From contig CAYRYE010000001.1 of assembly GCA_964428655.1 (NCBI GenBank), positions 73,328 to 137,327 on the forward strand: a DNA stretch of 64,000 bases, in the 5' to 3' direction. The notes beneath the pieces were generated by a model that saw only the letters and a list, made by a program, of their open reading frames with translations, did not search any database and was not told the DNA's origin. Shown piece by piece: positions 27,098-46,025 of the stretch. The stretch's first letter is position 1. Every line of letters begins with the position of its first letter. The translations under genes were made by a program, and so were the position numbers. The DNA is from an uncultured Gammaproteobacteria bacterium (GTDB taxonomy: Bacteria; Patescibacteriota; Microgenomatia; UBA12405; JAHJSD01).

Positions 27098-27172
27098 TCC
27101 CCGGTAGCTCAATGGTAGAGCGTCCGGCTGTTAACCGGCAGGTTGCTGGTTCGAGTCCAGCCCGGGGAGCCA
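27098..27172 (+). tRNA. tRNA-Asn (anticodon GUU), CCA encoded
   Basis: Acceptor TCCCCGG/CCGGGGA, D-arm GCTC-AATGGTA-GAGC, anticodon loop CTGTTAA, T-arm GCTGG-TTCGAGT-CCAGC, then G-CCA. Confidence 0.85.
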
Positions 27173-28642
27173 ATCCCTACTTACTCTAACTTTTCTCGAG
27201 TTAAGTAGTTTTTGAAAGAGTGGCGTATAGGTAACTTTCGCCACTTTTTTGTTTTTAATATCAAACCTCTCAAAGAATATAGCTAAGTAGTGTCTTTTAG
27301 CTTCAAAGCCAGCATTACAGTAGACTTCGTAAATGTTGTTGGTGAGCTTTAAGACTTCCTCTATAACGTCTACGTCAAAGCCTCTTTGGTTTTCGATAGT
27401 GGCTATCTCATTCTCCAGGTTTTGAATTTGAAAGTTAAGGTCTTGGTGTTTACGTTTGAAGGACTCTTTATCAATAGTTTTATCTAAGAGATTATCCTCC
27501 AAGATATTACGTTTATCCTCAAACTTTTTAATAGCATTGCGTACACCTTGAATTTCACTGTCTCTTGATTGTCGAGACTGTTTAACCAAGCTCTTTGCTT
27601 TGTCTAATACTGCTTGGGTAAACTCTTCTGATAACTCTATCTTCTTAAACTCTTTAGCTACTGCGTCTTCAAGCTCATCTAGAGGTATATAGTGGCTACA
27701 GCCATTTCTAGCACTACCATGATAATAAGCTTTGTTTTTAGCGTGAACACCATCACCATATAGGCGGGCGTCACATTCTTGGCAGTAGGCGAAGCCATTT
27801 AAGAGCCATTTATACTTTCTTCTTCTACAAGCATTATGGTTATGACGAGCCATTATCTTTTGACAGGTTTCAAATATTTCTGGTGTCGTTAAGGGGTCGT
27901 GTTTGCCTTTGTAAAGTTGGTCTTTATACTTCATCCACTTAATGTAGAAGGGGTTTTTAAGCATTTCATAAACTATACTTCGGTACATTTTTTTACCAGT
28001 TTTGCTTCTTAAGCCTTTGTCATTAATATGGTCAACTAACTCATCAACAGAGTAGTTGCCTGTAGAGTAAAGGCGAAATAACTCACTAACGAGGGAACTT
28101 TTTTCTTTATCCATCTTTATGACACGTTGAGGTTTGTCTTCGGAGCCGAGATTGACGTTTTTATAGCCAAGTGGAGCCCAGCCAGGCCAATCACCATTTT
28201 GGAGCTTCTTTTCTAAGCTTTTTTTCACCTTTCTACCCAACAATCGACTATAAAAAGCATTGGTCCCAGCAAGGATTGTTTCAAAAAACATCCCCTCTGG
28301 AGAATCATTTATCATTGGTTGATTAACTGCAATATATTTGGTCCCTGCTTTTTTAAGAGAATCTATGATATTAAAATGGTCTAGCTCGTTTCTAGCAATT
28401 CTATCCGTGTCAATTGTTAGAGCAACATCTATTTTTTCTTCTTGGCAATTAATAATCATATCGTCTAAAGCTTCTCGCCCAACTGTTTTTGTGCCTGATT
28501 TTCCACCGTCTTCAAATATACCCACTACTTGATAGCCATTCTTTTTGGCCCACTCGGCACATCTTTCCTTCTGAACGTCAAGAGAAAATCCGCCCACTTG
28601 TCCTGGGTCTGATACTCTAGAATAAATAACTGCTTTCTTCAT
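27131..28642 (-). CDS. large serine recombinase (phage-type integrase)
   Basis: N-terminal resolvase catalytic domain (AVIYSRVSDPGQ...DRIARN), central recombinase domain, and a Cys-rich zinc-ribbon region. The last 14 codons (LPGLDSNQQPAG) are encoded by the antisense of tRNA-Asn. Confidence 0.85.
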   Translation of the reverse strand: MKKAVIYSRVSDPGQVGGFSLDVQKERCAEWAKKNGYQVVGIFEDGGKSGTKTVGREALDDMIINCQEEKIDVALTIDTDRIARNELDHFNIIDSLKKAGTKYIAVNQPMINDSPEGMFFETILAGTNAFYSRLLGRKVKKSLEKKLQNGDWPGWAPLGYKNVNLGSEDKPQRVIKMDKEKSSLVSELFRLYSTGNYSVDELVDHINDKGLRSKTGKKMYRSIVYEMLKNPFYIKWMKYKDQLYKGKHDPLTTPEIFETCQKIMARHNHNACRRRKYKWLLNGFAYCQECDARLYGDGVHAKNKAYYHGSARNGCSHYIPLDELEDAVAKEFKKIELSEEFTQAVLDKAKSLVKQSRQSRDSEIQGVRNAIKKFEDKRNILEDNLLDKTIDKESFKRKHQDLNFQIQNLENEIATIENQRGFDVDVIEEVLKLTNNIYEVYCNAGFEAKRHYLAIFFERFDIKNKKVAKVTYTPLFQKLLNSRKVRVSRDWLPGLDSNQQPAG

Positions 28643-28896
28643 ACTTTATGACTCCTTTCTTCAAATTCACGAACACCGTTTATGATGCTATTACACATTT
28701 TGCTTTCTGGGGTTGAGTCCTCTATGGTTTGGGAGTTTGCCTTAACAATCCTTCCCCTTGATTCAATAATCTGCTTAACATGTTTCCAGGCAGGATAGAC
28801 GCCATGAACAAAACGAAAGCCAACTTCAGACAGTCTAACCTCAGCTAGTTTTTGAGCCATTAATTCTAACCAGTTGTTTGATGTTTGTTTAGTCAT
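28639..28896 (-). CDS. hypothetical protein (85 aa), translationally coupled to the integrase
   Basis: Its start overlaps the upstream gene's stop and its stop overlaps the integrase start. Confidence 0.45.
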   Translation of the reverse strand: MTKQTSNNWLELMAQKLAEVRLSEVGFRFVHGVYPAWKHVKQIIESRGRIVKANSQTIEDSTPESKMCNSIINGVREFEERSHKV

Positions 28897-29720
28897 AGGT
28901 GTGCAAGTAGTCCTTCAATTTGTTTAATATCTTTTTGCTCTTTTTTCACCTGGTGTGTGTATTTATCTATATTAATGTTGGCTTTAATAGCCGTCTCAAT
29001 CTTGTTTACTAACACGTCTGGGGGGAGAGCATCTAATTCGGTGGCAATATCGCCATACTTTTTTACAATTTTTTTTGCTCTTTTATCTGTTGATTTAGTT
29101 GGGTCTGTTGGTAGTTTGTGATTGACAATATCATCGTAAGTTAAAGCAATAACTTCTATATCAGGGTGCAAGTTAAAATGTTTTTCAAACCTATCTTGAA
29201 TATCTCTGGGTATATCTACTCCAGTGGGGTCAAAGTCTCCGAGGTATAAAATCTTGGTATTATCGTCAATTCGACTTGAAGCTTCGTAGATAGCGGATAA
29301 ACTTGGATAACCTCTGCTGATTTGTAAGTAAACATCATATCTTGCAGTTATCGGTTCCAATACGCTGGCTAAAGCATCTTTTTCGCACCACACTTCTAGA
29401 TGGAAGCCTTGGTCAATCAAAAGCCTTCTTTTGTAGGCTTTTTTAACTGTTTTGAAAAAGTCTTTGGGATTGGTCCAAGAAGAGGGTTTAATAGGGTTTC
29501 TGGTTCTATCGACTATGCGGTCGTAGGAAATGAGTCCTGACTCTCTTGCCCTAGAAATTAGCCTACCTAAGTTTTTGTATGACCTGTTGGTATTGGGGAG
29601 TAGTTGTTTGACTACAAAGCGATAATATAACTGTCTAAGTGTTAGCGGCATTGAATATTCAGCAATTATCTTATTGGCTTCGCTGATTTTTTGCAGTGAA
29701 CTTGGTATAAAATTATGCAT
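28893..29720 (-). CDS. minimal topoisomerase VI subunit A / Spo11-like protein (Mini-A-like)
   Basis: Winged-helix region with adjacent tyrosines (TLRQLYYRFV, resembling the 5Y-CAP catalytic-Tyr region) plus a Toprim domain with EKDA...GYP...LGDFDPTGVDI (the E...DxDxxG acidic triad). Only 275 aa and no B subunit nearby. Confidence 0.6.
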   Translation of the reverse strand: MHNFIPSSLQKISEANKIIAEYSMPLTLRQLYYRFVVKQLLPNTNRSYKNLGRLISRARESGLISYDRIVDRTRNPIKPSSWTNPKDFFKTVKKAYKRRLLIDQGFHLEVWCEKDALASVLEPITARYDVYLQISRGYPSLSAIYEASSRIDDNTKILYLGDFDPTGVDIPRDIQDRFEKHFNLHPDIEVIALTYDDIVNHKLPTDPTKSTDKRAKKIVKKYGDIATELDALPPDVLVNKIETAIKANINIDKYTHQVKKEQKDIKQIEGLLAHL

Positions 29721-29789
29721 TTTAGATATACTCAGATATTACTAGATGTTACCATTATACACCAGGACGTACACTCAGTCAAGACTGGG

Positions 29790-29818
29790 TTGACTTAGAA
29801 CGCACCAGATACTATAAT
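29790..29818 (+). promoter_or_regulatory. near-consensus sigma-70 promoter (TTGACT-N17-TATAAT) with an overlapping inverted repeat
   Basis: TTGACT at 29790-29795, TATAAT at 29813-29818. The palindrome AGTCAAGACTGGGTTGACT (29777-29795) overlaps the -35 box. The ATG of the downstream gene is 9 nt after the -10 box. Confidence 0.55.
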
Positions 29819-29827
29819 AACTAACTA

Positions 29828-30076
29828 ATGAGTGAAATAGCATATGTTCATACCATAGAAGACGTAGCGAAAATGTTTGGAGTTAATCCAGAAACAGTTA
29901 GGCGCTGGTGTCGTAGTGGGAAGCTTAAGTTTTTCAAGCTTCCAGGGAAAAAAGGTGAATATCGTATTTCTATGGAAGACATAAAAGATTTTATAGCAAG
30001 ACAGAACACTGAAGGTTTTAGTGATGATGGGGTGGCCCAGGGTTTAGGAACTCACATTTCAAAGAAGGATAGCTAA
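29828..30076 (+). CDS. helix-turn-helix DNA-binding protein, excisionase/AlpA-like
   Basis: VEDVAKMFGVNPETVRRWCRSGKLKFFKL is an MerR/Xis-type HTH. Divergent from the integrase module. Confidence 0.65.
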   Translation: MSEIAYVHTIEDVAKMFGVNPETVRRWCRSGKLKFFKLPGKKGEYRISMEDIKDFIARQNTEGFSDDGVAQGLGTHISKKDS

Positions 30077-30839
30077 CTATCAACTATTTACTCTTATTCT
30101 CTTATAACCCCACTTATGATTTTACTTGTTTGCTAAATATGGCTTTCATATAAGTGGAGTTGTATATTTAAGCGGCTCCTGACTTGAAGAAAATCCTTAA
30201 CTCTTCTTTTTAGCCTTGTTTTCATTGAATAGACTCTTTTTTGCATAGAGTCGTTGCTAACTTTTGAGTGGCATATATTGCCGTATCTTTGGATTCTTTT
30301 TATGTATTATTCCTATTGATACCATCCTGAATGATTCATCAGGAAATTAAGCCCCTCCCACAAAAAGTAGGTTCTTTTAATCTTTAGTCGGAATAGAGGT
30401 GATGTGCGGGTAAAAAAATACCATCCCGAACGACAACTCTTCCTCGCCGAGTTGCAGGCGACAGGTTTCTTACTACTACTCAAACTTGCCCAGGCCCGAT
30501 TACCAAGTGCTTTGCTCTAGCGTTGTAGTAGCCCCCAATACGGTGCTGTTTCTCTTGCGGCTTCTTATAAATGAGCAAAGAAGCCACAAAGATGAGCCAT
30601 GACTGGCTGACCCTCTGGGTTTGCACATCCAGGAAGTCTCGTTTGAGCTTCCTTACACCAATTTAGGTGTCAAAATGCCTCTATTCTATTTTTAACGTCC
30701 AACATATCGCTTTTAGGACGAGGTCTAAAGACCACAATTAGATATGTGGCAAGTAGCTTTACCTAAGCTAGTCTTGCTTTGTGACTAAAACTTGGTCTTT
30801 TACGACCTCTCGACTTAAAGTCGGACTTTGACTAATGAA

Positions 30840-31472
30840 TTAGTTATTTGCTAAGCAATTTTGATATTTCTCAACAAACAACTGGTTATACTTTTCCTCT
30901 TCCTTTGAACTAAACTTTTTATCTTTTATTAGTGATAGCTTGTGTCGATGAAATTTTGAATTTTTACCCAAGCCTGGACTTACGCCTCCATAACCACATT
31001 TTTTAGCTGGTATGACCCAAACCTCAGTTGGAATTAAAGGGCTGATGTTGTCTATATAAAACAAACAAACATAATAAGCGACTTTGTGTCTTAAATCTTT
31101 GTTTTTTATCCTAAAAACAGGCTTTTTGAAGTGGGATGTTTTGACATTAACTTTGTCTCCACGCCAGATTAAATCAACGGCATGCTTATCATCAATAAGC
31201 TCAATATCTACAACATTTTCTCTAAAGTATGGGTGTCCGAGAATATAAAGCTCTCCAAGTCTACCCTTACCAGAATTGTTGTTATAAAGATGAAGTTTGG
31301 GGATTCTAGGAAGCCCGTATTTGCGCATCCAGTAAATGATTGTTCCATTGAATACGCCGAAGTAGTTGCCAACTCTTCTAGTTGAGCCTAACTCGTCGTA
31401 TTTAGTTTTAAGAACATCTTTGTTTTTGTATTCCATTGAATCTCCTGGACATGACAGAATTAAACCTGACAC
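30840..31472 (-). CDS. hypothetical protein with N-terminal HTH-like segment (possible nuclease)
   Basis: 210-aa ORF. The likely real start is at MEYKNKD (around 31436). No confident family assignment. Confidence 0.45.
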   Translation of the reverse strand: MSGLILSCPGDSMEYKNKDVLKTKYDELGSTRRVGNYFGVFNGTIIYWMRKYGLPRIPKLHLYNNNSGKGRLGELYILGHPYFRENVVDIELIDDKHAVDLIWRGDKVNVKTSHFKKPVFRIKNKDLRHKVAYYVCLFYIDNISPLIPTEVWVIPAKKCGYGGVSPGLGKNSKFHRHKLSLIKDKKFSSKEEEKYNQLFVEKYQNCLANN

Positions 31473-31692
31473 TCAGGAGATTCTTTTCTCCATTACCTAA
31501 AAACTAGACGGAAATATGGAGGGGCACAAAAAAAGGAGCCCTTTTACCCATATTCTTGGGTCTATGACTCCTACAAAGAGGTACTTAAACTAAAACTTTT
31601 ACTATATCTAGTATATCGACTCCCTTCCTTTTGTCAATAAGGAGCTGTATAATTAAGTATAGTTCCTCATTTATGAGTAAAGTAGAGGTAGT

Positions 31693-31875
31693 ATGAAAAA
31701 ACTGTTGACCATACGCCAAGCGGCGGAGTTATTAAGCGTAAACATTGAAACCCTTAGACGGTGGGATAGAAAAGGTAAATTAAAGGCTGTTAGGGTTGGC
31801 AGTCGTCACGGTGTTGGTGACCGTCGTTATAAACAAGAAGACATTGAAAAATATATAAAGAAAAACAGTAAATAA
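31693..31875 (+). CDS. helix-turn-helix excisionase-family DNA-binding protein
   Basis: LTIRQAAELLSVNIETLRRWDRKGKLKAVRVG is a classic MerR-like/Xis HTH. Confidence 0.6.
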   Translation: MKKLLTIRQAAELLSVNIETLRRWDRKGKLKAVRVGSRHGVGDRRYKQEDIEKYIKKNSK

Positions 31876-31898
31876 GTTAAAAGAAAATTAAGAGAATT

Positions 31899-33437
31899 AT
31901 GACAAAAAAATCTACAGCTAATCTTGGTTTTGAAAAGAAATTGTGGGCCGCCGCAGATAAACTTCGTGGCAATATGGACTCGAGCGAGTATAAACATGTT
32001 GTTTTGGGTCTGATTTTTCTTAAATACATATCCGATTCTTTTGAAGATACTTACCAATCAATTAAATCTGATAAAGACGCTTTTGATGGCGAGTGGGAAG
32101 ATAAAGACGCTTACAAGGCTAGAAACGTCTTCTGGGTGCCAGAAAAGGCACGTTGGGATTATCTCAAGCAAAACGCCAAGAAACCTGAAATAGGAAAAAT
32201 CGTAGACGATGCCATGATAGCCATTGAGAAGGATAACCCTACTCTCAAAGGTGTATTACCTAAAAGATTTGCCCGTCCAGACTTAAATAAACAGCGTTTG
32301 GGCGAGATTGTTGATATTTTTAGCTCTCTTGGTCTAGGAGACAAAGAATCCAAGGCTCAAGATATTCTAGGTAGGGTTTATGAATACTTTATTGGTAGAT
32401 TTGCCAGTGCTGAGGGCAAAGGTGGCGGTGAGTTTTACACTCCAGCTTCGGTGGTCAAACTTTTAGTGCAGATGATAGAGCCCTACAAGGGCAGAGTTTA
32501 TGACCCCTGCTGTGGTAGTGGGGGTATGTTTGTGCAAAGCGAAAAGTTTGTCGAAGAACATGGGGGCAAGACTAACGATATTGCAGTCTATGGACAGGAA
32601 AGTAACCCCACAACTTGGCGTCTCTGTAAGATGAATCTAGCCATACGAGGTATTGAGGGGAACCTTGGTTCATCTGATGCTGATAGCTTCCACAATGACC
32701 AACATAAAGACTTAAAAGCTGACTTTATTCTAGCCAATCCTCCTTTTAACGACAGCGATTGGGGTGGAGAAAGATTAAGAGATGATGTGCGCTGGAAATA
32801 TGGCACGCCTCCAACTGGTAGTGCTAACTATGCTTGGATTCAGCATTTTATCCATCATTTATCCCCTTCGGGTATTGCTGGCTTTGTAATGGCCAATGGG
32901 GCTTTGTCTTCAAACACTTCTAATGAAGGAAAGATAAGAGAAAGCTTGATAAAAGCTGGTTTAGTGGATTGCATTGTGGCTTTACCAGATAAGCTTTTTT
33001 ATACCACGGGTATCCCAGCCTCTTTATGGTTTGTATCTAGAGATAGACATAATCATAAATTCCGTGACCGCCACAATGAAATTCTTTTTATCGATGCCCG
33101 CAAGCTAGGTAAAATGATAGACCGTAGGCATAGAGAATTGACAGAAGCTCAACTCAAACAAATTTATGACACATATCACAACTGGAGAAATAAAAACGGC
33201 AAATATGAGGACGTCAAAGGATTCAATAAAGCCGCCAAGATTGAAGAAGTAGAAAAGAATGGCTTTGTATTGACTCCTGGTCGCTATGTGGGTACAGATT
33301 TTGAAATGGAGGATGACGAATTTTTCGAAGAGAAAATGAAAAGACTCACCAATGAGTTAAGTCAACAGTTCAAAGAGTCAAAGGAATTAGAAAAGAAAAT
33401 TAAAGAAAATTTAACAAAAGTTGGATTTAAGCTATGA
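31899..33437 (+). CDS. hsdM: type I restriction-modification system methyltransferase subunit HsdM
   Basis: N6-adenine MTase motif I ([12 protein letters not shown]) and motif IV (ILANPPFN). HsdM N-terminal domain is present. Confidence 0.9.
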
Positions 33438-34003
33438 AACAAAAATTAATACTTTTCCATAAGAGAATTGAAAGATTAAAGCTGAATAAGGACTTCTTTG
33501 TTAGTAGTCGTGTGAATATTAACTATGAGAAAGACAGAGGAACGTACACTTCTTTTAAGGGCCCTGATACTAAGACGGTGAAGGCATTTCTTTTAGATTT
33601 TAGGCCATTTGTATTAAATGATGAGCCGATAAATTTTGACCATATCAGTAACTTGGTTTACAAAACAAGTCCTGACAATAAAGTCAAAGAAAATACTGCC
33701 AAAGCAAAAGATGGTTGGAATAAACTACTGGAGCGTAAGAAATCATCCCCCGTTGGTGGATTAAGGCTTCAGATTGATGGGAAACAACTTTTATCTCAGG
33801 AGAACTTGGATATGTGGTTAAATGCCGACTATTTTCATCTAGATGAAAATAAACGAGATTTAATGACAAGGATTAGCAGTAACCCAATGGGTCAAATTTC
33901 TTATTTTGTTTTTGTTGATTTATTGCAACGTCTGAGTCAAATGTTGTTTTGGTTTGATAACAAAGTAATAAATCCAATTTTAGGTAAACACAAATCTAAA
34001 TAA
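33434..34003 (+). CDS. hypothetical protein nested between hsdM and hsdS
   Basis: Its start overlaps the hsdM stop (ATGA). 189 aa, no recognisable domain. Confidence 0.5.
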
Positions 34004-34007
34004 AACT

Positions 34008-34514
34008 ATGGACAATTTTTTTATAAAAATTTATACAGAGCAGATAAAAGACCAGCTTAGTGAGGCTGAACTTTGTTTTGAGAAAATTAAAAACAACTTA
34101 AAAAATAGCCCTGTTGTGTTTGGTGCAATCCATCACTTTTTGGTGCACGTCTCTAATGTAGCTAAATTGATACAACCGAAAACTAAGGAAGATAATGATT
34201 TTCGAAAATACAGAGCCATCTCACTTAAGAGAGCATACCCCAATTTGCCAACCCTTAATCCAAATGAAATCCATGTTCGAAATGATTATGAACATTACGA
34301 TGAAAGAATTGACCATTGGGTTATTAACTCTAAAAAACACAATTATGCAGATAAAAACATTGGTCCAATCACGGCAATTAAAGGTTTAGAACCAAAAGAT
34401 AATTTTAGGTGGTTTGACGATACAAAAATGACACTTTATTTCTGTGGCAGAGAATATCATCTGGACGATTTGTTTTCATACATTCAAAAAGTTAAAAAAG
34501 CAATAAATGAATAA
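34008..34514 (+). CDS. hypothetical protein, possible HEPN-like (Rx4H motif) accessory protein
   Basis: 168 aa. Contains RNDYEH (an Rx4-6H motif) in a predicted helical context. Its stop overlaps the hsdS start. Confidence 0.4.
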   Translation: MDNFFIKIYTEQIKDQLSEAELCFEKIKNNLKNSPVVFGAIHHFLVHVSNVAKLIQPKTKEDNDFRKYRAISLKRAYPNLPTLNPNEIHVRNDYEHYDERIDHWVINSKKHNYADKNIGPITAIKGLEPKDNFRWFDDTKMTLYFCGREYHLDDLFSYIQKVKKAINE

Positions 34515-35790
34515 TAAACAAGTTAATTACAAGCAGACAGAAATTGGTGAGGTTCCTAAAGACTGGCAAGTGGAACCAGTTTCCAGAGCTTCAGAAATAA
34601 TAAGTGGCGGTACTCCCAAAACATCTAAAGCTGAATACTGGGGCGGAAAAATACCCTGGTTGTCAGTTGCAGATTTCAATAATGAGCAAAGATATGTTTA
34701 TGATTCAGAAAAAACTATAACGGAAAAGGGATTAAACGGTAGTAGCACAAATATCCTTAAAAAGGAAATGTTGATTATCTCGGCGAGAGGTACAGTAGGT
34801 GTGTTGGCTCAAGTTGGCAGAGACATGGCCTTTAACCAATCCTGTTACGGCTTGAATTCAAAACAAGGTTATATTAACGATTTTCTTTACTACTCTCTTA
34901 AAAGTCGCATGGGCGCTATAAGACAAAAAACTCATGGTTCCGTTTTTTCAACTATCACGAAAAGAACTTTTGATGATATTTTTTTACCCAAACCAAAAGT
35001 TGAAGAACAACAACAAATAGCCTCAGTTCTTTCTTCTCTCGATGACAAAATTGAGCTGAATCGCAAAATGAACCAGACCCTTGAAGAAATGGGTAAAGCT
35101 CTTTTTAAGAATTGGTTTGTAGACTTTGAATTCCCTAATAATGAGGGAAAACCATATAAATCAAGCGGTGGCAAAATGGTGGAGAGTGAGCTCGGAGAGA
35201 TACCAAAAGGATGGGATGTTGCACAATTAAAAGAATTTGGAGAAATAGTTTGTGGTAAAACACCTCCAAAAAAGAAAAGTGAGTATTTTGGCGGAAATGT
35301 TCCGTTTATCAAAATACCAGATATGCACAGTCAAATGTTTATAGTTAAGACGGAAGACTCTCTAACTAAGGAAGGTATGGATTTTCAAAAACAGAAAAAT
35401 TTGCTAAAAGATTCTATCTGTGTAAGTTGTATTGCCACAGTAGGGTTAGTTTGCATCACAAGCCAGGTGTCTCAAACCAATCAACAAATTAATTCAATTG
35501 TTCCAAGTGAGAGATTTTATAGGGAATATTTGTATTTCACACTGAGTTCAATGGACAGGACTTTAAGAGATTATGCAAGCGGAGGCTCGGCAACGCTAAA
35601 TCTAAATACAGGTAGTTTTTCGAAAATATATATCCTAAAACCAAGCAAGGAGACTTTACAACTGTTTAATGAGCACAACTCAAATTTATTTGAAAAAGTT
35701 TTAATGAATGAAAAGGAAAACATAAACCTTGCTCAAGCTCGAGACTCTCTTCTACCAAGATTAATGAGTGGGAGGTTGAGAGTAAATTAA
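34507..35790 (+). CDS. hsdS: type I restriction-modification system specificity subunit HsdS
   Basis: Two target-recognition-domain halves separated by a central conserved region (LDDKIELNRKMNQTLEEMGKALFKNWFVDFEFP) and a C-terminal conserved repeat (LLPRLMSG). Confidence 0.85.
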   Translation: MNNKQVNYKQTEIGEVPKDWQVEPVSRASEIISGGTPKTSKAEYWGGKIPWLSVADFNNEQRYVYDSEKTITEKGLNGSSTNILKKEMLIISARGTVGVLAQVGRDMAFNQSCYGLNSKQGYINDFLYYSLKSRMGAIRQKTHGSVFSTITKRTFDDIFLPKPKVEEQQQIASVLSSLDDKIELNRKMNQTLEEMGKALFKNWFVDFEFPNNEGKPYKSSGGKMVESELGEIPKGWDVAQLKEFGEIVCGKTPPKKKSEYFGGNVPFIKIPDMHSQMFIVKTEDSLTKEGMDFQKQKNLLKDSICVSCIATVGLVCITSQVSQTNQQINSIVPSERFYREYLYFTLSSMDRTLRDYASGGSATLNLNTGSFSKIYILKPSKETLQLFNEHNSNLFEKVLMNEKENINLAQARDSLLPRLMSGRLRVN

Positions 35791-35792
35791 GT

Positions 35793-36932
35793 ATGAAAAA
35801 ATATCAATTAACCAGAGTATCAAGTAACGTAGCCAGAACAGATGACATTGTTATTGAGGAAAGCGGTACTTTTAGAAAAGTGTTTCGTGGAATTGTTATT
35901 AAAGACAATCCAAAAGACCCCAAGGCGACACTGAAAGGCTACATTATTGTTCAAAGAAAGGGGCCTAGGGACGAATGGAAAGACTTGTCTTCAATAAAGT
36001 TGAATGAGTTGAAAAAAGATGAAGGTATAAAATTTGAATTAAAAAGTTTAGCATTACAAAATTTATTTGAGGCATTAAATAACTTATATCGTATTTCAAA
36101 ACAAGAATTGCCCTGGTTAGAGGAGAGCTATGTTGTAGCTAAGGAAGAAGAAATTATCAGGGTTAGTGAAAAGAGGAAAAGTTTTGTAAAAAAATTGCTC
36201 AAACAGGATTATGGAAATGAAGTTTGGGAACAATTGATTGAAACTGAACCCCATCTAGCCACAAGATTAGCTCATTCAAGGATACAAACAGAGCGAGAGT
36301 CTGCTCTCGCTGAATTTGAGGCATCATTGAGCGAAGAAAAGGGTGAAGCGTACTGGCAAACATTCTTTCAAGAAAATGAATGGATTTTTGGGCTGGGTCT
36401 AAAATACCAATATCTACATTTAATTACAGCTCAACCAGATTATGGTGGTGGTAATGTTTTTGGTTCTGGTAGTCAAAGAGGCGACTATCTTATGGACACC
36501 ACGTCTGATAGCAAATTTACAGTTTTGGTAGAAATTAAGAAGCCAGAAACGCCGCTTCTCGGTAGTGATGAGTATAGAAATGGAGCATGGGAATTGGGAG
36601 AAGATTTAGTTGGTGGTGTTTCTCAAATTCAAGTGAATGCTAATAAGTGGGAGGTGGCTGGTTCAAGAACCGATGAAAACAGAGAAGCGTTAGAAGACGT
36701 GACGACATGTAGTCCAAAGGGTCTTTTAATAATTGGGCATTGTGACCAGCTTGATAGTGCCTCAAAAAAGAAAACCTTTGAATTGTATAGGCAAAATTTA
36801 GTTAATCCAGAAGTAATTACCTTTGACGAACTGCATGAAAGGGCAAAATTTATAGTTAACAACTCATCAGATGAAACTTCACCTGAGCCTGTAGAAGTTG
36901 ATATTTCAGAGGATGAAAAAATACCTTTTTAA
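35793..36932 (+). CDS. Shedu-like DUF4263 family PD-(D/E)xK nuclease (SduA-like) nested in the type I R-M operon
   Basis: C-terminal region [16 protein letters not shown]...RGDYLMDTT...[15 protein letters not shown]...VSQIQVN...LLIIGH matches the DUF4263 pattern (WQxFF..N.WIFG, D...vEiK, Q). Confidence 0.55.
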
Positions 36933-36934
36933 GT

Positions 36935-39900
36935 ATGACTAAATACACAGAAACAGACCTAGAATTAGCAACATTAGACTGGCTTGAAGAGCTTGGTTAT
37001 ACCATTGTGGGTGGTCCAGAAATTGCACCACCTCCAGATGGGGAAAGACCAGAGCGCAAAAGCTATTCTGATGTTGTTTTGGAAGACAGGCTCCGTTCTG
37101 CTATTGAGCAATTCAACCCTGGTATTCCAGAAGATGCCAAAGAAGAAGCTTTTAAGAAGGTCTTGCAGGCCACTAATACCACACCCAGCCTTGTACTTAA
37201 CAACAAAATATTTCACTCATATTTGAGGGATGGTGTGGATGTTGAGTATATGCGAGATGATGGTTCTGTTGCTGGAGATAAAGTAAAACTAGTTGACTTC
37301 AAAAATATTGATAAGAATGATTTTCTGGCAGTTAACCAGTACACAGTTATTGAAAACAACGTAAACAGACGCCCTGATGTGGTGGTATTTATAAATGGGT
37401 TGCCTGTAGTTGTTATTGAACTTAAAAACCCAGGTGACGAGAAGGCCACAGTTAAAAGTGCCTTTAACCAGATTCAGACCTACAAGCAAGATATTCCCTC
37501 ACTCTTTGTATATAACGAGCTATCAATTATTAGCGATGGCCTAGAGGCTAAAGTAGGCACCATTAGTGCTGATATTGAGTGGTTTACTCGCTGGAGAACA
37601 GTTGATGGTGAAGAATTGGCCCCCAATGCTGTACCTCAGCTAGAAGTTTTACTAAAAGGTATTTTTGATAAAACAAGACTTTTGGATTTAATAAGCAATT
37701 TTATTGTTTATGAAACCGATGGTGAGAAAACAATTAAAAAGGCCGCCGCCTATCATCAATACTTTGCAACTAATAAAGCTATTGAAAGCACCATTAAAGC
37801 AACCATGGAGGAGGGAGATAGAAGGGCTGGTGTAGTTTGGCATACTCAAGGGTCTGGCAAGAGTTTAACCATGACCTTTTATGCAGGCAAGGTGATACAA
37901 GCTCTAAACAACCCCACTCTGGTAGTTTTGACCGATAGAAATGACTTGGACAATCAGCTTTTCGGTACATTCTCCAGGTGTTCAGATTTACTTAGGCAAG
38001 CACCTAAGCAGGCTAATGATAGAGATGAGTTGCAAGAACTTTTAAGTGTTGCTTCTGGTGGTGTGGTATTTACGACAATACAGAAGTTTTTACCTGAAAA
38101 TGGACATAATACTTACCCACAACTTTCTGACAGAAAAAACATTGTTGTTGTAGCCGATGAAGCTCATAGAAGCCAATATGAATTTATCAAAGGCTTTGCT
38201 CGTCACATGCGTGATGCTCTGCCCAATGCTTCGTTTATTGGTTTTACAGGTACTCCAGTTGAATTGATGGATAGGAATACAAGAGCAGTTTTTGGTGAGT
38301 ATGTTGATGTTTATGATGTAACCAGAGCAGTTGAAGATAAGGCCACGGTGCCTATTTATTACGAAGCTAGACTAGCAAGAATAGAACTGAAAAAAGATGA
38401 GCAACCTAAGATTGACCCTGAATTTGAAGAGTTAACCGAAGGTGAAGAGGTAGAACGTAAGGAAAAACTAAAGAGTAAATGGGCCAGGCTTGAGGCTATG
38501 GTTGGCTCAGAAAAAAGAATTAGTTTGGTGGCCCGTGACTTAGTTGAGCATTTTGAGAATCGATTAACTGCAATTGAAGGAAAAGGAATGATAGTTGCCA
38601 TGAGCAGAAGGATTGCGGTGGACCTGTATAACGAGATTATTAAACTTCGACCTAACTGGCATAGTGACGATGATAAAAAGGGTGTATTGAAGGTAGTTAT
38701 GACTGGTTCAGCCTCTGACCCTTTGATTTTCCAACCACATATTAGACCCAAACACGCCTTAAATGAATTAGCTGGTAGGATGAAAGACCCAGATGATGAG
38801 ATGAAGTTAGTGATTGTTAGAGATATGTGGCTAACTGGTTTTGATGTTCCTTGTCTTCACACTATGTATATAGATAAACCAATGAAAGGTCATGGTTTGA
38901 TGCAGGCTATTGCTCGGGTAAACAGAGTTTACAAAGACAAGCAAGGTGGTTTGATAGTTGACTACATTGGCATAGCTCCCCAACTAAAAGAAGCCCTTTC
39001 TTATTACTCGGCAAGTGACAGGCAAGAAACAGCTATACCGCAAGACAAGGCAGTTTCTCTGATGCTTGAAAAATACGAAGTGGTTAAGGGCATGTATCAC
39101 GGCTTTGACTATCAAAAATACTTAACAGGTACTCCAGCAGAGCGAACCCAGACTATTTCAGGCGCTACAGACTATATATTGGGGCTTAAAGATGGCAAGA
39201 AACGCTACTTAAAGGCAGTTTCTGAGCTATCTAAGGCATTTTCTTTGGCTGTTCCTCATGATGAGGCAATTAAGATTAGAGATGAGGTTTCTTTCTTCCA
39301 GATTGTACGAAGCGGGATTGTAAAAATGGAGCCTGTAGGCGGTGGTCCAACTGATGATGACTATGATGTGGCTATCAAACAAATAGTATCTTCTGCGGTT
39401 GCTTCAGACCATGTGATTGATATTTACTCTGCCGCTGGGATAAAAGCCCCAGATATTTCTATATTTTCAGAAGAGTTTTTAGCTGAAGTTAGGAACATGA
39501 AGCACAAGAATGTGGCTTTGGAATTGTTAAAGAAACTTTTGAATGATGAGCTTAGAACCATGACTAAAAAGAACTTGGTTATGTCTCGGTCCTTTTCTGA
39601 CATGCTGGCTGAGACTATCCGTAAATACCAGAATAGAACCCTTGAAGCGGCTCAAGTGATAGCCGAACTTTTAGAACTTGCTAAAAAGATACGAGATGAA
39701 AAAGATAAGGGTAAGGATTTAGGTTTGAGTGAAGACGAAGTGGCTTTTTATGATGCTTTGGCAAATAACGAAAGCGCAGTAAAAGAGCTGGGAGACAAAA
39801 CGCTCAAAGCTATGGCAATAGAGTTGGTTGATATGCTTCGCAAGAATACCACGATTGACTGGACTATAAAGGAAAGTGTCCAGGCTAAGCTGAGAGTTTA

Positions 39901-40015
39901 CATTAAAAGATTGCTGAAGAAATATAAGTATCCGCCAGACAAGCAAGAGGGAGCTACTAAGATAGTATTAGAACAGGCAGAGTTACTAGCTAAAGATTGG
40001 ACAGGAGAAAAATAA
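36935..40015 (+). CDS. hsdR: type I restriction enzyme R subunit HsdR
   Basis: 1026 aa with SF2 helicase motifs TQGSGKS (Walker A), VADEAHRSQ (DEAH), and a C-terminal HsdR domain. Confidence 0.9.
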
Positions 40016-40393
40016 ATGACTCAACTACAAATATATCCCATCAAATGTGAATGCGGTAACTTGATAGATGTTAACCTCTATCAAAGTGTAAATGTCACGG
40101 TAGACCCATCGCTTCTTGGAAAAGTAAAGAAAAGAAAAATAAACAACTATAAGTGTGATAAGTGTGGTGCAGAAAGTGAGCTTGCATATCAATTTTTATT
40201 TGTTGATATGAAAAAAGGAATCTGGGTATGGTGTTATCCAGAAGCGGAAAGAAAAAACAAAGACAAAATTGAGGAAGAACTTCTAAAAACGCAAGCTTTG
40301 GAAAATATGTTACAGAAACTCGGACAGCCCAAGCCCACAATAGTATTTGGCTACGATGAGCTTTTAGATAAATTAGATTCAAACAAAAAATAA
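40016..40393 (+). CDS. zinc-ribbon small protein (two CxxC-type pairs)
   Basis: CECGN...CDKCG. Its start abuts the hsdR stop. Confidence 0.45.
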   Translation: MTQLQIYPIKCECGNLIDVNLYQSVNVTVDPSLLGKVKKRKINNYKCDKCGAESELAYQFLFVDMKKGIWVWCYPEAERKNKDKIEEELLKTQALENMLQKLGQPKPTIVFGYDELLDKLDSNKK

Positions 40394-41151
40394 TGTCTCA
40401 ATACTACAACGCCAAACGTTCAATAAAATATTGCTACCAGCCAGGGTCTAAACAACCTTTTAAGTTTAGTCGTTCAAAGATTGACCTATTTTTACAATGT
40501 CCAAGGTGTTTTTATATGGATAGGCGCCTGGGTGTTGCTAGACCTCCTGGATTCCCTTTTGCCTTGAATAGTGCCGTAGATAAGCTTCTAAAGCTCGAGT
40601 TTGACGCTCACAGGGTCAATGGCACCCAACATCCTCTACTTGAGAAATATGACGTGGATGCTAAACCAGTAGCTCACGAAAAACTAGATGACTGGAGACA
40701 AAACTTTGTAGGGGTTCAGTATTTGCACAAACCCACTAACTTATTAGTCTTTGGAGCAATTGATGACTTATGGATTAACTCTAAGGATGAATATATTGTG
40801 GTTGATTATAAATCTACAAGTAAAGGTGAAGCGATAACTGAACTAGATAAGGATTGGCACGAAGGCTATAAACGCCAGATGGAGATTTACCAGTGGTTGT
40901 TAAGGCAGAATGAGTACAAAGTTTCCGATACTGGTTACTTTGTTTACTGTAATGGCATTACTGACAAGAAAGCCTTTGATGCCAAGCTTGAATTTAATGT
41001 GACCTTAATCGCTTATGAGGGAAATGATAACTGGGTTGAGAAAGCTATTAAGGGCGCACACAAATGCTTAAACGGTGACTCAATCCCTGAAGCTGGTGAA
41101 GATTGTGACTATTGTGCTTATAGGGAAGCGGTAAAGGAGATTGAGTCTTAA
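40393..41151 (+). CDS. PD-(D/E)XK nuclease, Cas4/RecB-like with Fe-S cysteines (second paralog in window)
   Basis: N-terminal LQCPRCFY, nuclease core GAIDDL...EYIVVDYKS, QxxxY-like RQMEIYQ, and C-terminal HKC...EDCDYC. Confidence 0.65.
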   Translation: MSQYYNAKRSIKYCYQPGSKQPFKFSRSKIDLFLQCPRCFYMDRRLGVARPPGFPFALNSAVDKLLKLEFDAHRVNGTQHPLLEKYDVDAKPVAHEKLDDWRQNFVGVQYLHKPTNLLVFGAIDDLWINSKDEYIVVDYKSTSKGEAITELDKDWHEGYKRQMEIYQWLLRQNEYKVSDTGYFVYCNGITDKKAFDAKLEFNVTLIAYEGNDNWVEKAIKGAHKCLNGDSIPEAGEDCDYCAYREAVKEIES

Positions 41152-41230: not shown

Positions 41231-41947
41231 TTATATTTCCAACAAAAACTTGATTAAAAACTGCAAATAATAAACTCCCGTCAAGATAAAAATCGAAGCT
41301 ATTACTTTTCTACCTACCTTTTCAATTTTTTGCACAACAGAGAAAGCTTGACCAACCCTTTTCATACTAAAGGCTATTAGAAAAGAGAAAACAATTACTG
41401 GCAGACCAGTGCCTAGACCAAATAAAGGTGGCAATAAAAGGGCTTCGTTGGATTTCAAAACTAAAGGGATAAGGACTCCAAAAAACAAAACTCCGCTATA
41501 AGGACAAAAAGCCAAAGCAAAAAGACAACCTAAAAGAAAAGAGCCGAGATAGCCTTTAGTAGCGAGTTTTTCTTTGAGACGCTCCACTTTGTCATTTTTA
41601 GTTTTGATGTTTAACTTGATAGCATCAAACATGACTAAGCCAATTATTATCAGTATTGGCCCCAATATTTTTTCTCCCCAGCCTTGAAAAATACGTGAGA
41701 CTTCAAAAGAAGAGAAGCCAAGGTAAATTAGAGAGGCCAAAACCGTGTAGCTAAGGCCACGGCCAATGGTATAACAAAGGCCATTTAGAAGTGTATTCTT
41801 AGGGTTTTTAATCTCTTTGGAAATATAAGCAATAGCAGTAATGTTGGTAGCCAATGGGCAAGGACTGATAGAGGTAAGAATTCCAGTTAGAAAAGCGGTT
41901 AAGAGCGGAATGTTGTATTGGTCAATAAGCAGATTAATATAATCCAT
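41231..41947 (-). CDS. CcdA/DsbD-family transmembrane thiol-disulfide electron transfer protein
   Basis: 6 TM segments with Cys in TM1 (SISPCPLATN) and a second conserved Cys (LAFCPYSG). Confidence 0.6.
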   Translation of the reverse strand: MDYINLLIDQYNIPLLTAFLTGILTSISPCPLATNITAIAYISKEIKNPKNTLLNGLCYTIGRGLSYTVLASLIYLGFSSFEVSRIFQGWGEKILGPILIIIGLVMFDAIKLNIKTKNDKVERLKEKLATKGYLGSFLLGCLFALAFCPYSGVLFFGVLIPLVLKSNEALLLPPLFGLGTGLPVIVFSFLIAFSMKRVGQAFSVVQKIEKVGRKVIASIFILTGVYYLQFLIKFLLEI

Positions 41948-41950
41948 GGT

Positions 41951-42466
41951 TTACTTTCCCAATAAGGTATCAAGTTTGTCTTCGAAATAATCAGTAAATT
42001 TTTCTTGATTATTAACCAGTCGCCAAACTGTTGTATCCTCTTCGATATTGTATTTGTCATCGCTAATAGCATTAATAAACAAAGACGAGCCCCTAGCCTG
42101 ATACTTAACAACAATCTCTTTGTTTTCTGGTAATTCAATATTAATATCCTTGAAGACTACTTTTCCTGATTGATATTCTTCTGGAAACTTATCTTTGATG
42201 GTTTGTAAGGCGTATTTACCAACAGTGATACAAGAAAAGCACTGGTGAGTAGCATGGAAATGAACCACTTCGATTTTATCCGCTGGTATTGTCTCTTGAC
42301 TTGCTAATGAGGAATTATTTTCTTTTTGCGGTTCAATTGAAGTTGGTTGAGTTGAACCTAGAATAGAGGAGCTTTTAATCTCTTTATTAGAAAAGCCTTT
42401 TAAGCCAAAAAACAGGGCGATTATTATTAAGATTACACTGATAAAGAAAATTATTTTTTTATTCAT
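41951..42466 (-). CDS. secreted CxxC protein (thioredoxin-like?)
   Basis: Signal/TM, then a HFHATHQCFSC motif. Confidence 0.4.
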   Translation of the reverse strand: MNKKIIFFISVILIIIALFFGLKGFSNKEIKSSSILGSTQPTSIEPQKENNSSLASQETIPADKIEVVHFHATHQCFSCITVGKYALQTIKDKFPEEYQSGKVVFKDINIELPENKEIVVKYQARGSSLFINAISDDKYNIEEDTTVWRLVNNQEKFTDYFEDKLDTLLGK

Positions 42467-42475
42467 TTTTTTGTT

Positions 42476-43633
42476 TTAGCCAGTTAGACCATAGATAAAA
42501 CCAGCTAAAGTGGTTAAGACAACAATTGAACCTGCATAAACCAGCATTTTTTTAGTACCGATTAGCTTTCTGATAACCAAAAGCCCTTGTAGTGACAAAA
42601 CGGGGTCGGCTAGCATGTAAGCCATTAAAGGGCCTTTACTCATACCTAGCTTCATAAAGTTTTCAGCTATTGGTACTTCTACTAAAGCTGGAAAGTAGGC
42701 CAAGGCTCCAAACATAACAGCAATAAAGTTGGTAAGTAAATTGTTTTGACTGGCTATAGCCTGGAATTGTTCTTTGGGAATAAGATGGGTAATAGTAGCC
42801 GCAAAAAACACACCCACTAAAAGTAAGGGTACAATCTGACTGACAAATTTAATTGTTTCATTCCACCAATCACCTCTTTTTTCTTTAGATAGCCAGGAAA
42901 AAGTCATTATCAACTGCAACAATACTAGGGGAAGAATTAAGATATATCTTAAATTACTGCCGATAGGGGCTGTGCCAACTACCAGAATTGCCAGCATTAT
43001 TCCCCAGAACCAGACATTTTTGGGACCTTTAAGGCTACTAGCGTCTTGATTTACCACCTGAAGGTTTCCGTCTTCTTTGCCATTTCCAAAAACAAGTTCC
43101 ATTATCAAGCCAACCGAAATAGCAAATATAACTGAGAGGATAAATCTGACAATACTAAATTCCCAGCCGATTCTCTGGCCAGTAAAAAGGATAGTGACAA
43201 TATTAAAGGCAGGGCCAGCGTAAAGAAGAGTAATAGCAATTCCCAAGCCAGCGCCTTTTTTCCAGATACCAGCAAATAAAGGCAAAATCGTGCAGGAGCA
43301 AACTTCAATTAAAAAACCTGTGGTGACAGCGATTAAATAGGCCAGCCATTTTTTGGTTTTACCGCTTAGATATTTTAGGATTGACTGTGAATCAATGAGG
43401 CTATTGATAGCTCCAGCAATAAAAAAGGCAGGAACTAAACAAAAAAGAACATGAGCAGAGAGATAGTCAACTAAGCCTAGCCAGCCTTGATAAACCGCAC
43501 CACCGATTAGGTTTTGAACTGATTCTTGAGCTAAAAAACCGCCTATTTGTTTCTGCCATAAATAGATGATTAAATAGGCACCTCCCAAAAGGCCCAAGAC
43601 CCAGTTTTTCTTAATGATTTTCATAAGATTCAT
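42476..43633 (-). CDS. DUF318/ArsP-like permease
   Basis: Many TM segments plus the family-typical CxC motif (EVCSCTILP). Usually paired with a small thioredoxin. Confidence 0.65.
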   Translation of the reverse strand: MNLMKIIKKNWVLGLLGGAYLIIYLWQKQIGGFLAQESVQNLIGGAVYQGWLGLVDYLSAHVLFCLVPAFFIAGAINSLIDSQSILKYLSGKTKKWLAYLIAVTTGFLIEVCSCTILPLFAGIWKKGAGLGIAITLLYAGPAFNIVTILFTGQRIGWEFSIVRFILSVIFAISVGLIMELVFGNGKEDGNLQVVNQDASSLKGPKNVWFWGIMLAILVVGTAPIGSNLRYILILPLVLLQLIMTFSWLSKEKRGDWWNETIKFVSQIVPLLLVGVFFAATITHLIPKEQFQAIASQNNLLTNFIAVMFGALAYFPALVEVPIAENFMKLGMSKGPLMAYMLADPVLSLQGLLVIRKLIGTKKMLVYAGSIVVLTTLAGFIYGLTG

Positions 43634-43636
43634 AGT

Positions 43637-43888
43637 TTATTTTTTCTCTTTCTGAATAAGTTTTTTAATTTTCTCTACATCGTCTACAGAACCTGCTATT
43701 GCTGGCTTACCATTTATTGCCAGCACAGGACTGGACATTACTCCCATATCTATCATTTTTTGAACACCTTCTTGACCTGTTAGATATTCAACTTCCTCTT
43801 TTAAGCCAGTTTCTTCAACAGCTTGTTTAGTTAGTTCGTATAGTTTTTTACAGGTTGGACAACCTGAGCCTAAGACTTGAATTTTCAT
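43637..43888 (-). CDS. thioredoxin-family 'redox-active disulfide protein 2'
   Basis: 83 aa with an N-terminal CPTC active site, about 80 aa long. The canonical partner of DUF318 permeases. Confidence 0.7.
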   Translation of the reverse strand: MKIQVLGSGCPTCKKLYELTKQAVEETGLKEEVEYLTGQEGVQKMIDMGVMSSPVLAINGKPAIAGSVDDVEKIKKLIQKEKK

Positions 43889-44226
43889 TTTTTAACACCC
43901 CCTGCTTTAAGAAAGATTTGTAATTTATTAAGACCATCTTTAGTGAGGGAGTAAAAAACCTGACGAGCATCTTTGCCTTGACGTTTCTTAATCCAGCCAG
44001 TTTCAACTAAATCTGATAAATGGTGGGAGATAAGGCTTTGTTCTTTTTCCAGGCAGTTTTGAATTTCGCAAACACAATGTTCTCTGTTTAAGAGAATAAG
44101 AAGAATTTTTAGTTTAGTCTTTGTAGATAAAGTTTTGGCTACCGTTAACAAAGACTCTGTTGTTTTAGGGTCTAGTAAACCACAATTACATGAACAGTTA
44201 TTCATATAATCTATTATATTACTCAA
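43885..44226 (-). CDS. ArsR/SmtB-family metalloregulator
   Basis: HTH with the metal-site motif EHCVCEI (ELCVCDL-like). Confidence 0.75.
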   Translation of the reverse strand: MSNIIDYMNNCSCNCGLLDPKTTESLLTVAKTLSTKTKLKILLILLNREHCVCEIQNCLEKEQSLISHHLSDLVETGWIKKRQGKDARQVFYSLTKDGLNKLQIFLKAGGVKK

Positions 44227-46020: not shown

Positions 46021-46025
46021 ATCAA

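Follow-up and report, generated by a model that had tools for sequence, protein, structure and literature searches.

A probable 32.5-kb island at tRNA-Asn of a Patescibacteria chromosome and a family of serine integrases with the attachment site inside the integrase gene

The DNA analyzed here (the window) is a 64,000-nt stretch of contig CAYRYE010000001.1 from a genome of the Patescibacteria (candidate phyla radiation, CPR), and our subject is a tRNA-Asn(GTT) gene, a serine integrase gene that ends inside it, and the island of which the two probably form one border. The tRNA lies at 27098-27172 on the plus strand (ARAGORN and Rfam, 70.6 bits), and the integrase gene (int, 503 aa in its integrated form) at 27131-28642 on the minus strand, with an antisense overlap of 42 nt. 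An earlier note on this DNA had described the 3' end of a serine recombinase gene as antisense to tRNA-Asn(GUU), which is confirmed. By Pfam comparison, the integrase (Int) has a Resolvase domain (PF00239, E 6.4e-29) with the catalytic serine in a YSRVS motif (S11), a Recombinase domain (PF07508) and a zinc ribbon (PF13408, Zn_ribbon_recom), all of the serine-recombinase type, and it has no Phage_integrase (tyrosine recombinase) domain. S11 is invariant in alignments of 43 and 50 sequences, and the AlphaFold2 (AF2) model of the homolog P0005 places long helices (339-435) between the zinc-ribbon strands as an inserted coiled coil. The window open reading frame (ORF) is a large serine recombinase (LSR), for which catalysis between an attP and an attB site is predicted from its domains and sites.

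The last 12 residues of Int and its stop codon are the antisense strand of the tRNA, with the TAA facing U35-U36-A37 in the anticodon loop; the C-terminus is ...DWLPGLDSNQQPAG, and its end as read from the ORF is ...SRDWLPGLDSNQQPAG. On the int strand the junction reads GAT TGG CTC CCC GGG CTG GAC TCG AAC CAG CAA CCT GCC GGT TAA, in which the TGG codon is the complement of the tRNA CCA, CTC spans G73 and A72-G71, and the GAC TCG AAC codons (D-S-N) are the T-loop.

When we searched for homologs at E ≤ 1e-20, we found 210 relatives of Int, the named ones mostly from Patescibacteria, and a profile scan of JGI metagenomes gave 452 relatives, of which 80 loci were retained for analysis. Three main classes of C-terminus occur among the 210 homologs: the tRNA-antisense form (...NWLP(G/R)xDSNxxP...), a short form with the stop right behind NWLPG or NWLPR, and a long form with a helical tail of ~42 aa (for example ...NWLP-TPTAIITVLEDFEYMASLREQVRIIKQF...AA). 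The 3' end of int runs antisense into a tRNA-Asn(GTT) called by ARAGORN in 30 of the 80 loci, and in at least 8 further loci the int stop codon abuts a group I intron within the target tRNA, which ARAGORN misses because the intron interrupts it. The overlap recurs, in the same frame and with the same tRNA, in at least 37 independent loci; a tRNA-Ser locus and a distant tRNA-His locus are the exceptions to the tRNA-Asn target. The intact attP form, which has the long tail but no tRNA, occurs at about 13 loci; two of these free-form genes (L009 and L010) have mobile-element genes on both sides (TraG-like, restriction-modification (R-M), RuvC and a second recombinase). An attP inside the int ORF would be expected to produce this distribution of C-termini and tRNAs over the loci.

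The intron-bearing target tRNAs (L007:11520-11806, and others in L023, L043, L052, L058, L060, L062 and L063), in which the int stop abuts either the intron or the 3' exon, are probably tRNA-Asn, judging from their acceptor and T-arm sequences. Further C-termini after NWL (...W(D/N)(D/E)FRT... and ...IRTYF..., in P0016, P0019, P0030, P0056, L029, L033, L047 and L050) fit neither the tRNA-antisense nor the helical-tail class and may represent a second tail type or another target.

Natural attP sites were taken from ten free-form loci. Their distal motifs form near-perfect inverted repeats (GTTATAATAAG/CTTATTATAAC in L094 and GTTAGATTAAG/CTTAATCTAAC in L081), spaced 11 and 12 nt from the two sides of the Leu-codon TC, an architecture common to LSR sites that identifies TC (GA on the tRNA strand, positions 71-72) as the crossover. 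At the left junction of the window (attL), the crossover GA is at 27167-27168, its int-strand TC being the last two nucleotides of the Leu codon CTC. Next to it, at 27169-27190, is the P arm of the former attP, consisting of GCCAATCCCTA and then the distal motif CTTACTCTAAC (27180-27190), which doubles as the int codons ...VRVSRDWL and whose inverted-repeat motif keeps the 11-nt distance to the crossover seen at the free-form sites. According to this junction analysis, the host-derived part of the tRNA is positions 1-72, and G73-CCA (27169-27172) now comes from the P arm of the element. One Logan contig (L005, from SRR3095939) stops at window position 27170, inside the attL junction after GAGC, where contigs from three other runs read through; the stop could be an assembly-graph branch where a variant diverges, for instance a related tRNA-Asn or an empty site.

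An attP inside int predicts that the displaced tail segment is to be found at the far end of the element, on the int strand. A hidden Markov model (HMM) built from the long tails of free-form integrases matches one place in the window, 59772-59572 on the minus strand (E 5e-6 and 1.6e-7); it superseded tblastn with raw tail peptides, which was too noisy. At 59572-59697 on the minus strand we found the displaced C-terminal tail of the attP-form Int (EGRNLNINKQFNQIIQVFQDFKLVQDLRKEIAKVKPRLVLTT; stop codon 59569-59571), its reading frame open and continuous with that of int across the junction, and ~65-70% identical to the tail of P0005 (EGRNLNITKSFSHIIKVFEDFKFVQELREKIKRLE...), with the Int bodies 67% identical. 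The first part of this tail is the P' arm of the former attP (59674-59697), formed by the distal motif GTTTATATTAAG (59674-59685) and GTTACGCCCCTC with the family spacing of 12 nt; it agrees with the P' arm of the natural L031 site at 22 of 30 positions, and the reconstructed attP shows the symmetry peak of the family. Reconstruction of attP places the crossover GA of the right junction (attR), and with it the element end, at 59698-59699. The boundary therefore is not at 41151, where the stretch described in the earlier note ends, but at 59698/59699, marked by the displaced int C-terminal segment.

Beyond the element end (59700-59719) are a 13-bp filler, ACAAGAAAGGACA (59700-59712), and then GAGCCAA. 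The 7-bp identity of GAGCCAA between 27167-27173 and 59713-59719 had first been taken as the core and was rejected as the boundary: with the GA at 59713-59714 as crossover, the reconstructed attP has 15 extra bp and no symmetry, and only 6 of 30 positions agree with the L031 P' arm. At the true element ends only GA is shared, and the GAGCCAA copy stands 15 bp further out. Past the filler the sequence continues as GAGCCAA-ACCAATT. Since GA|GCCATCC, GA|GCTAGAT or GA|GCATTT stands straight at attR in other elements, GAGCCAA probably represents the native tRNA-Asn end (A72-G73-CCA) and its trailer in displaced position. The filler, seen in no other element examined, is flanked by two GA and with one of them measures 15 bp, or 5 codons, which keeps the frame. 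An earlier event may have left it as a scar, and it could make excision harder.

The reconstructed attP of the window, predicted as ...GTTAGAGTAAGTAGGGATTGGC-TC-GAGGGGCGTAACCTTAATATAAAC... from attL and attR, has the same repeat spacing as the free-form sites, with its symmetry centre at GA. The predicted attP junction k-mer is GTAAGTAGGGATTGGCTCGAGGGGCGTAACCTTAAT, the attB junction would be CCAGCCCGGGGAACAAGAAAGGACAGAGCC or, without the 13-bp filler, CCAGCCCGGGGAGCCAAACCAATTTTTT, and an empty site should show the tRNA-Asn directly followed by GCCAAACCAATTTTTTCTG and a 143-aa gene.

The same order of tRNA, int, cargo and tail fragment is present in three other elements with both ends captured, L042 (~7.2 kb), L088 (~7.6 kb) and L082 (at tRNA-Ser). 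The cores shared by attL and attR span 2-7 bp (on the int strand, TTGGCTC in the window, later reassigned, GCTCCCC in L088, GCTCC in L042 and GCGG in L082), and TC was identified in the shared cores of all four elements. Joining the ends of each captured element gives an in-frame long-form Int, and the L042 reconstruction (...TPNLL-RVPSFALTTALSRVLKAFQNPIW...) is nearly identical to the natural free-form protein P0014. A further locus, L099, has an attR with intact tail and no int gene. Two other tail fragments suggest tandem or inverted arrangements of family elements: L008 holds a complete long-tail int (9983-11605) and a second tail/P-arm fragment (543-689) 9.4 kb upstream, and L038 a tail-like fragment on the opposite strand (20995-21123, minus) 9.5 kb past tRNA-Asn.

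The explanation that we prefer, with a probability of roughly 0.8, is that an island of 32.5 kb (~27169-59699), and not of 14 kb, was inserted by the LSR into the 3' end of tRNA-Asn(GTT) of a Patescibacteria chromosome, using an attP inside int. The earlier note had also read the locus as an element integrated at tRNA-Asn by the overlapping serine recombinase, and both junctions and the recurrence among relatives support it. In this family attP lies within the int ORF at the N/D-W-L codons, with the P arm encoding ...V-R-V-x-x-(N/D)-W-L and reading GA-G-CCA in antisense, thus mimicking the A72-G73-CCA end of the tRNA, and with the P' arm formed by the first ~8 codons of the conserved helical C-terminal tail of ~42 aa. 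It would recombine at GA with an attB that is the end of the tRNA-Asn acceptor stem. After integration, the tRNA would remain intact, with its discriminator base and CCA supplied by the element; the int ORF would become fused to the tRNA antisense strand, gaining 12 residues (LPGLDSNQQPAG) and a stop opposite U35-U36-A37, and the segment coding for the ~42-aa tail would be stranded at attR. Excision would rebuild an integrase of 535 aa.

Classic tRNA islands are made by tyrosine integrases and leave behind a direct repeat of the tRNA 3' end. The earlier note had called the overlap the classic arrangement for tRNA integration, a description that does not fit an LSR with a 2-bp crossover, attP in the int ORF and no direct repeat. 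Its failure to find a repeat does hold: with up to 3 mismatches allowed, we detected the tRNA 3' end nowhere else in the window. The 2-bp crossover of the LSR accounts for the missing repeat, and the position of attP inside the int ORF for the overlap of int with the tRNA.

The tail evolves as protein. Past the 8-10 codons that double as the P' site, the proportion of synonymous differences (pS) is 0.7-1.0, which is saturated, and that of nonsynonymous differences (pN) 0.03-0.3. Comparison of the L042 tail at attR with the L008 free-form tail gives 14 synonymous and 2 nonsynonymous differences, a nonsynonymous-to-synonymous rate ratio (dN/dS) of ~0.02. Such a low ratio marks the tail as a selected protein segment, and this selection means that integrated lineages must pass through the attP form. 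Tails ending in ...AA account for 12 of ~39 long (attP-form) tails, from several diverged subfamilies (P0092 is one), and for none of the 30 tRNA-encoded tails; the window tail ends in ...LVLTT and not in AA.

We infer that the two Int isoforms differ in activity or stability, such that the enzyme would 'know' its integration state. A stronger version, in which the exchange of C-termini is a built-in switch and the isoforms differ in stability or directionality, is speculative and in our estimate rather unlikely. Were it true, the element might steer integration versus excision by the topology of its own gene and not only by a separate directionality factor, a corollary we hold just as tentatively.

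Behind int comes orf85 (28639-28896, minus), a small conserved ORF that is translationally coupled to int and has a homolog directly upstream of int in ~40 family loci; it has no Pfam, PHROGs or NCBIfam match and is a candidate accessory or directionality factor. Next to it is a gene for Mini-A, a stand-alone Top6A/Spo11-like protein of 275 aa with 5Y-CAP and Toprim parts (28893-29720, minus). It matches phrog_6247 ('DNA topoisomerase', E 1.7e-67) over residues 3-267, carries the motifs RQLYY (29-33), E113, DFDPTG (163-168) and ATELDAL (226-232, with T for W), and has weak TOP6A Toprim, DUF2399 and JetD matches. Two HTH_17 genes (excisionase/MerR-type) follow on the plus strand, one of 82 aa (29828-30076, E 2.4e-15) that recurs near int and one of 60 aa (31693-31875) that is always paired with hsdM in family loci; orf85 and the HTH_17 proteins, together or either alone, may aid excision. 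Between them is orf210 (30840-31472, minus), a recurrent family gene (51-67% identity in at least 8 loci) with a weak HTH_50 match. The topo VI-A-like gene and the two excisionase-type helix-turn-helix genes of the earlier note are these Mini-A and HTH_17 genes.

A type I R-M operon of eight tightly packed plus-strand genes, with junctions from an 8-nt overlap to a 4-nt gap, occupies 31899-41151, as the earlier note had said of a tightly coupled operon with type I R-M. The HsdM, HsdS and HsdR set is complete: HsdM (31899-33437, MTase_I E 1e-231), HsdS (34507-35790, Specificity_I E 5e-136) and HsdR (36935-40015, REase_I E 0), all by Pfam/PADLOC. Embedded among or behind them are two ORFs without family match (189 aa, 33434-34003, and 168 aa, 34008-34514), Shedu SduA (35793-36932; PF14082 (DUF4263) E 6e-27, PF21407 (SduA_N) E 2e-19, PADLOC SduA E 3e-73), a protein with the Pfam domain CpXC (40016-40393) and a Cas4-like PD-(D/E)XK nuclease identified by family match (40393-41151). 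The three extra nuclease-type genes that had been proposed for this operon are thus partly borne out, by SduA and the PD-(D/E)XK protein; the 189-aa ORF, the 168-aa ORF and CpXC have no nuclease-family support. NCBIfam, PHROGs and PADLOC gave no match for orf85, orf210 or the 189-, 168-, 321- and 483-aa ORFs, and CpXC has only its Pfam domain. In L043, whose element is related to that of the window (HsdM 86% and HsdR 88% identical), ~1.9 kb of different sequence (L043:4244-6133) replaces Shedu between hsdS and hsdR, which makes this junction look like a swap point for embedded defense genes. Type I R-M loci with embedded defense genes are known, such as prrC in EcoprrI. The window operon resembles EcoprrI in having hsdM-hsdS-hsdR interrupted by other defense genes in one operon and differs in which genes are embedded (Shedu SduA, the two unassigned ORFs, CpXC and the Cas4-like nuclease).

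Farther into the island, Pfam identifies a minus-strand cargo operon of ArsR, thioredoxin, an ArsP-type permease, an unassigned gene and DsbD_2 (41231-44226). The interval 44296-59530, host-like in composition, holds genes for HIT, DUF6602, NUDIX, an AstE/AspA-like protein, a DEAD-box helicase, a two-component system, MacAB-like efflux and DUF5666, along with several ORFs without assigned family. A T-box leader (111 bits; 51259-51519, minus) stands upstream of the AstE/AspA-like gene (50264-51199; succinylglutamate desuccinylase/aspartoacylase family), an unusual T-box target. A direct repeat of 157 nt with 83% identity (44294-44450 and 46024-46180) lies upstream of two minus-strand unassigned genes; this is the duplicated module of the earlier note, and the adjacent ORFs are u108 and u155.

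Among family loci, the core consists of orf85-int, the HTH_17 genes, orf210 and very often HTH_17(60)-hsdM, and the cargo varies at the same site (Gabija-like in L007, radical-SAM and AAA in L042, YdjC in L088). Mini-A is variable cargo, found elsewhere in the family loci only in L079. Defense and topology genes had been seen as typical cargo of an integrated element; defense genes and Mini-A are indeed present, although Mini-A is rare and not part of the family core.

Several observations weigh against the preferred explanation. Thirteen extra base pairs separate the P' arm from the displaced G73-CCA at the window attR. The tetranucleotide composition of 41-59.7 kb is host-like, and homologs of the MFP-ABC-FtsX-DUF5666 efflux cluster lie on the host side of tRNA-Asn in L035-37, which leaves room for rearrangement or accretion after integration. 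The AF2 model of P0005 (mean pLDDT, the predicted local distance difference test, 81) has two short tail helices at pLDDT 37-69 with no confident docking, and this low-confidence placement gives no structural hint to tail function. We found neither an empty attB nor a circular attP junction of this exact element, and the exact-match contigs are all occupied, as are the sites retrieved by looking up the exact proteins of the two flanks. Anchoring on PGK in species-representative genomes yielded a single short contig of no relevance, and a scan of metagenome contigs with degenerate attL/attR/attB/attP patterns gave zero hits, an uninformative result because even the source contig was missed.

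The earlier note had proposed to look in relatives for an empty tRNA-Asn site, and we found only occupied sites or, in the best syntenic relative, L099, decayed remnants. This locus has the same eight-gene left flank (its NRAMP gene is 72% identical) and, over 12176-19000, a tRNA-Asn without int, an attR with intact P' arm and tail 2.7 kb downstream with nothing but adh_short, CN_hydrolase and an ORF in between, and another int 3' fragment in unrecombined attP configuration ~6.6 kb downstream (~18.9 kb in the locus). Its downstream genes match neither the window interior nor the right flank. Because of these family remnants, L099 was rejected as a clean empty site; it shows family elements decaying in place, which also counts against a mobile island in the window, and characterizes the locus as a recurrent landing site. 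The remnants could be decayed elements or int-less mini-elements mobilizable by the integrase of another element.

A composite or immobilized island is therefore a serious rival for this copy, if in our judgment the less probable one: an old insertion would have accreted or trapped host DNA or remnants of earlier elements and lost excision, with the intact int kept for another role or merely not yet decayed. The 13-bp filler, the host-like composition of 41-59.7 kb, the chromosomal efflux and two-component homologs in relatives, the int-less remnants at the same tRNA in L099, and the identical sequence of all sampled contigs, with no empty-site variant, all suit such an island. Against it stand a full-length Int with its Ser-11 motif (YSRVS) intact, a tail ORF that is open and in frame and resembles that of P0005 about as closely as the Int bodies resemble each other, P and P' arms that retain the family spacing and motifs, and the Logan contig ending at 27170, which could be an assembly-graph branch.

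A smaller element of ~14 kb (27098-41151), integrated in the classic way at the tRNA and with its far boundary unmarked near the end of the defense operon, is improbable. It would account for the tetranucleotide composition, slightly atypical in 27-41 kb alone (distances of 19-26 versus 13-17 for the host), but the comparison of composition and tetranucleotides is only weakly discriminating. The conserved family genes orf85, HTH_17, orf210 and hsdM are also all within 27-41 kb. However, there is no tail fragment, P' arm or att-like site near 41 kb, the sole cognate tail and P' arm being at 59.6-59.7 kb, and the recombinase is of the serine and not the tyrosine type. In addition, other family loci link int to genes of the 41-46.6 kb part: upstream of int, L052 has an ArsP homolog (83%) adjoining hsdM (86%), L041 a homolog of u155 and L044 one of u108, the last two in the same orientation. 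The ArsR operon and the 44-46 kb module, which had been left as possible members of the element, both fall between attL and attR.

More improbable still is a prophage or phage satellite, the latter suggested by the earlier note and favored by Mini-A genes, which have been reported only in viral or proviral contexts (PMC7671362); the only PHROGs matches are the Mini-A gene and the DUF6602 protein. No capsid, portal, terminase, tail, lysis or conjugation genes, nor other virion or packaging genes, were found among the ORFs tested with Pfam and PHROGs, and the Int family is almost absent from IMG/VR viral contigs, with one distant match in two scans. Moreover, Mini-A is outside the family core, and complete elements can be as short as 7 kb with metabolic cargo. 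The family elements are compact integrative islands and not prophages. Finally, an accidental read-through of int into the tRNA without mechanistic meaning, conceivable in that just the last 12 codons are involved and the tRNA dictates their sequence, is refuted by the recurrence of the overlap in the same frame and the same tRNA in at least 37 independent loci, by the coincidence of the conserved N-W-L codons with CCA and G73, and by the existence of matching attP forms.

The LSRs phiC31, Bxb1, A118, SPbeta SprA, CcrB and XisF have the same architecture of resolvase, recombinase and zinc ribbon with coiled coil, and those of phages and integrative and conjugative elements likewise use a 2-bp crossover and a quasi-palindromic attP of ~50 bp without long direct repeats. 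To our knowledge, the well-studied LSR systems have attP beside int or elsewhere outside it and usually use an attB within a protein-coding gene. In the window LSR, by contrast, the int ORF contains attP, the tRNA-Asn 3' end serves as attB, the P arm mimics and replaces G73-CCA, and integration alters the Int C-terminus. Its NCBIfam scores against CcrB and XisF are far under the cut-offs, placing it in a separate family.

In the archaeal SSV-type 'suicidal' tyrosine integrases, attP is within int, the target is a tRNA and the gene is split on integration; a 2021 review states that they occur exclusively in archaea (PMC8371274). The family described here shares with SSV1, pTN3 and pT26-2 an att site inside the integrase gene, a tRNA target, a gene partitioned on integration and a compact int-plus-att module. 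The SSV-type enzymes are archaeal tyrosine recombinases in which the split takes part of the enzyme proper, whereas here a bacterial serine recombinase exchanges only a ~42-aa tail beyond the zinc ribbon, and all recognized domains therefore stay on one polypeptide. In mycobacteriophage BPs, attP is in a coding sequence, and the prophage and viral forms of the protein differ at the C-terminus, the viral form having an ssrA-like degron (PMC4557955). The window system likewise has attP in a coding sequence and a C-terminus that differs between the free and integrated forms, but the affected gene is the serine integrase itself, whereas BPs has attP in its repressor gene and integrates by a tyrosine recombinase. 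The long tails ending in AA recall ssrA-like tags by analogy, giving them at most a candidate degron role; the tail of the window itself ends in LVLTT. That the switch outlined above is a bacterial serine-recombinase counterpart of the archaeal 'suicidal' integrases and of integration-dependent immunity is a doubtful idea.

A targeted, non-exhaustive full-text literature search found no description of a serine or other bacterial integrase with attP inside its own ORF, nor of a tRNA-Asn-specific LSR family in Patescibacteria. What is new is that, throughout a large CPR family, integration rewrites the integrase itself; LSR chemistry, att sites within int and an altered C-terminus on integration are each known. 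The 2021 review (PMC8371274) notwithstanding, att sites inside integrase genes thus also occur outside archaea and in serine recombinases, and a large, previously uncharacterized family of Patescibacteria serine integrases shares the arrangement. Such elements seem to be important carriers of defense genes (type I R-M, Shedu, Gabija-like), and of accessory genes, among small CPR genomes. They also offer a testable system for how a serine integrase might sense integration, with two natural isoforms that differ only in a selected tail of ~42 aa. As a compact module, an int with internal attP that repairs the tRNA it enters could be a useful integration tool: its target, the tRNA-Asn 3' end, has one arm (T-arm plus acceptor stem) conserved across bacteria, and it might serve in CPR bacteria, which are genetically hard to manipulate.

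The R-M operon of the window is a particular combination and not a new principle, and its Mini-A is likewise of known type. Mini-A has been defined as a protein of ~300 aa with a 5Y-CAP half and Toprim, the motifs RxxY/FY, E and DxDxxG, and a C-terminal T2BI box, xWELDAL, and is known from viral or proviral contexts only (PMC7671362). Like the Mini-A proteins of Takahashi et al. 2019/2020, that of the window is of ~275-300 aa, has RxxYY and E...DxDxxG, and has no B subunit nearby; it differs in its box (ATELDAL, T for W) and in its host, a CPR island in which no viral genes were found.

Six loci (L040, L043, L044, L046, L048 and L069) have an extra gene of ~135 aa between orf85 and int (for example L043:10001-10414), whose product is a resolvase-type N-terminal domain alone in which RTA replaces the catalytic RVS and the serine is lost. 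By its sequence, this protein may be an inactive paralog serving as a regulator. One of the intron-bearing loci, L060, also contains a LOOT RNA at 122-233 (Rfam RF03000, 79.8 bits).

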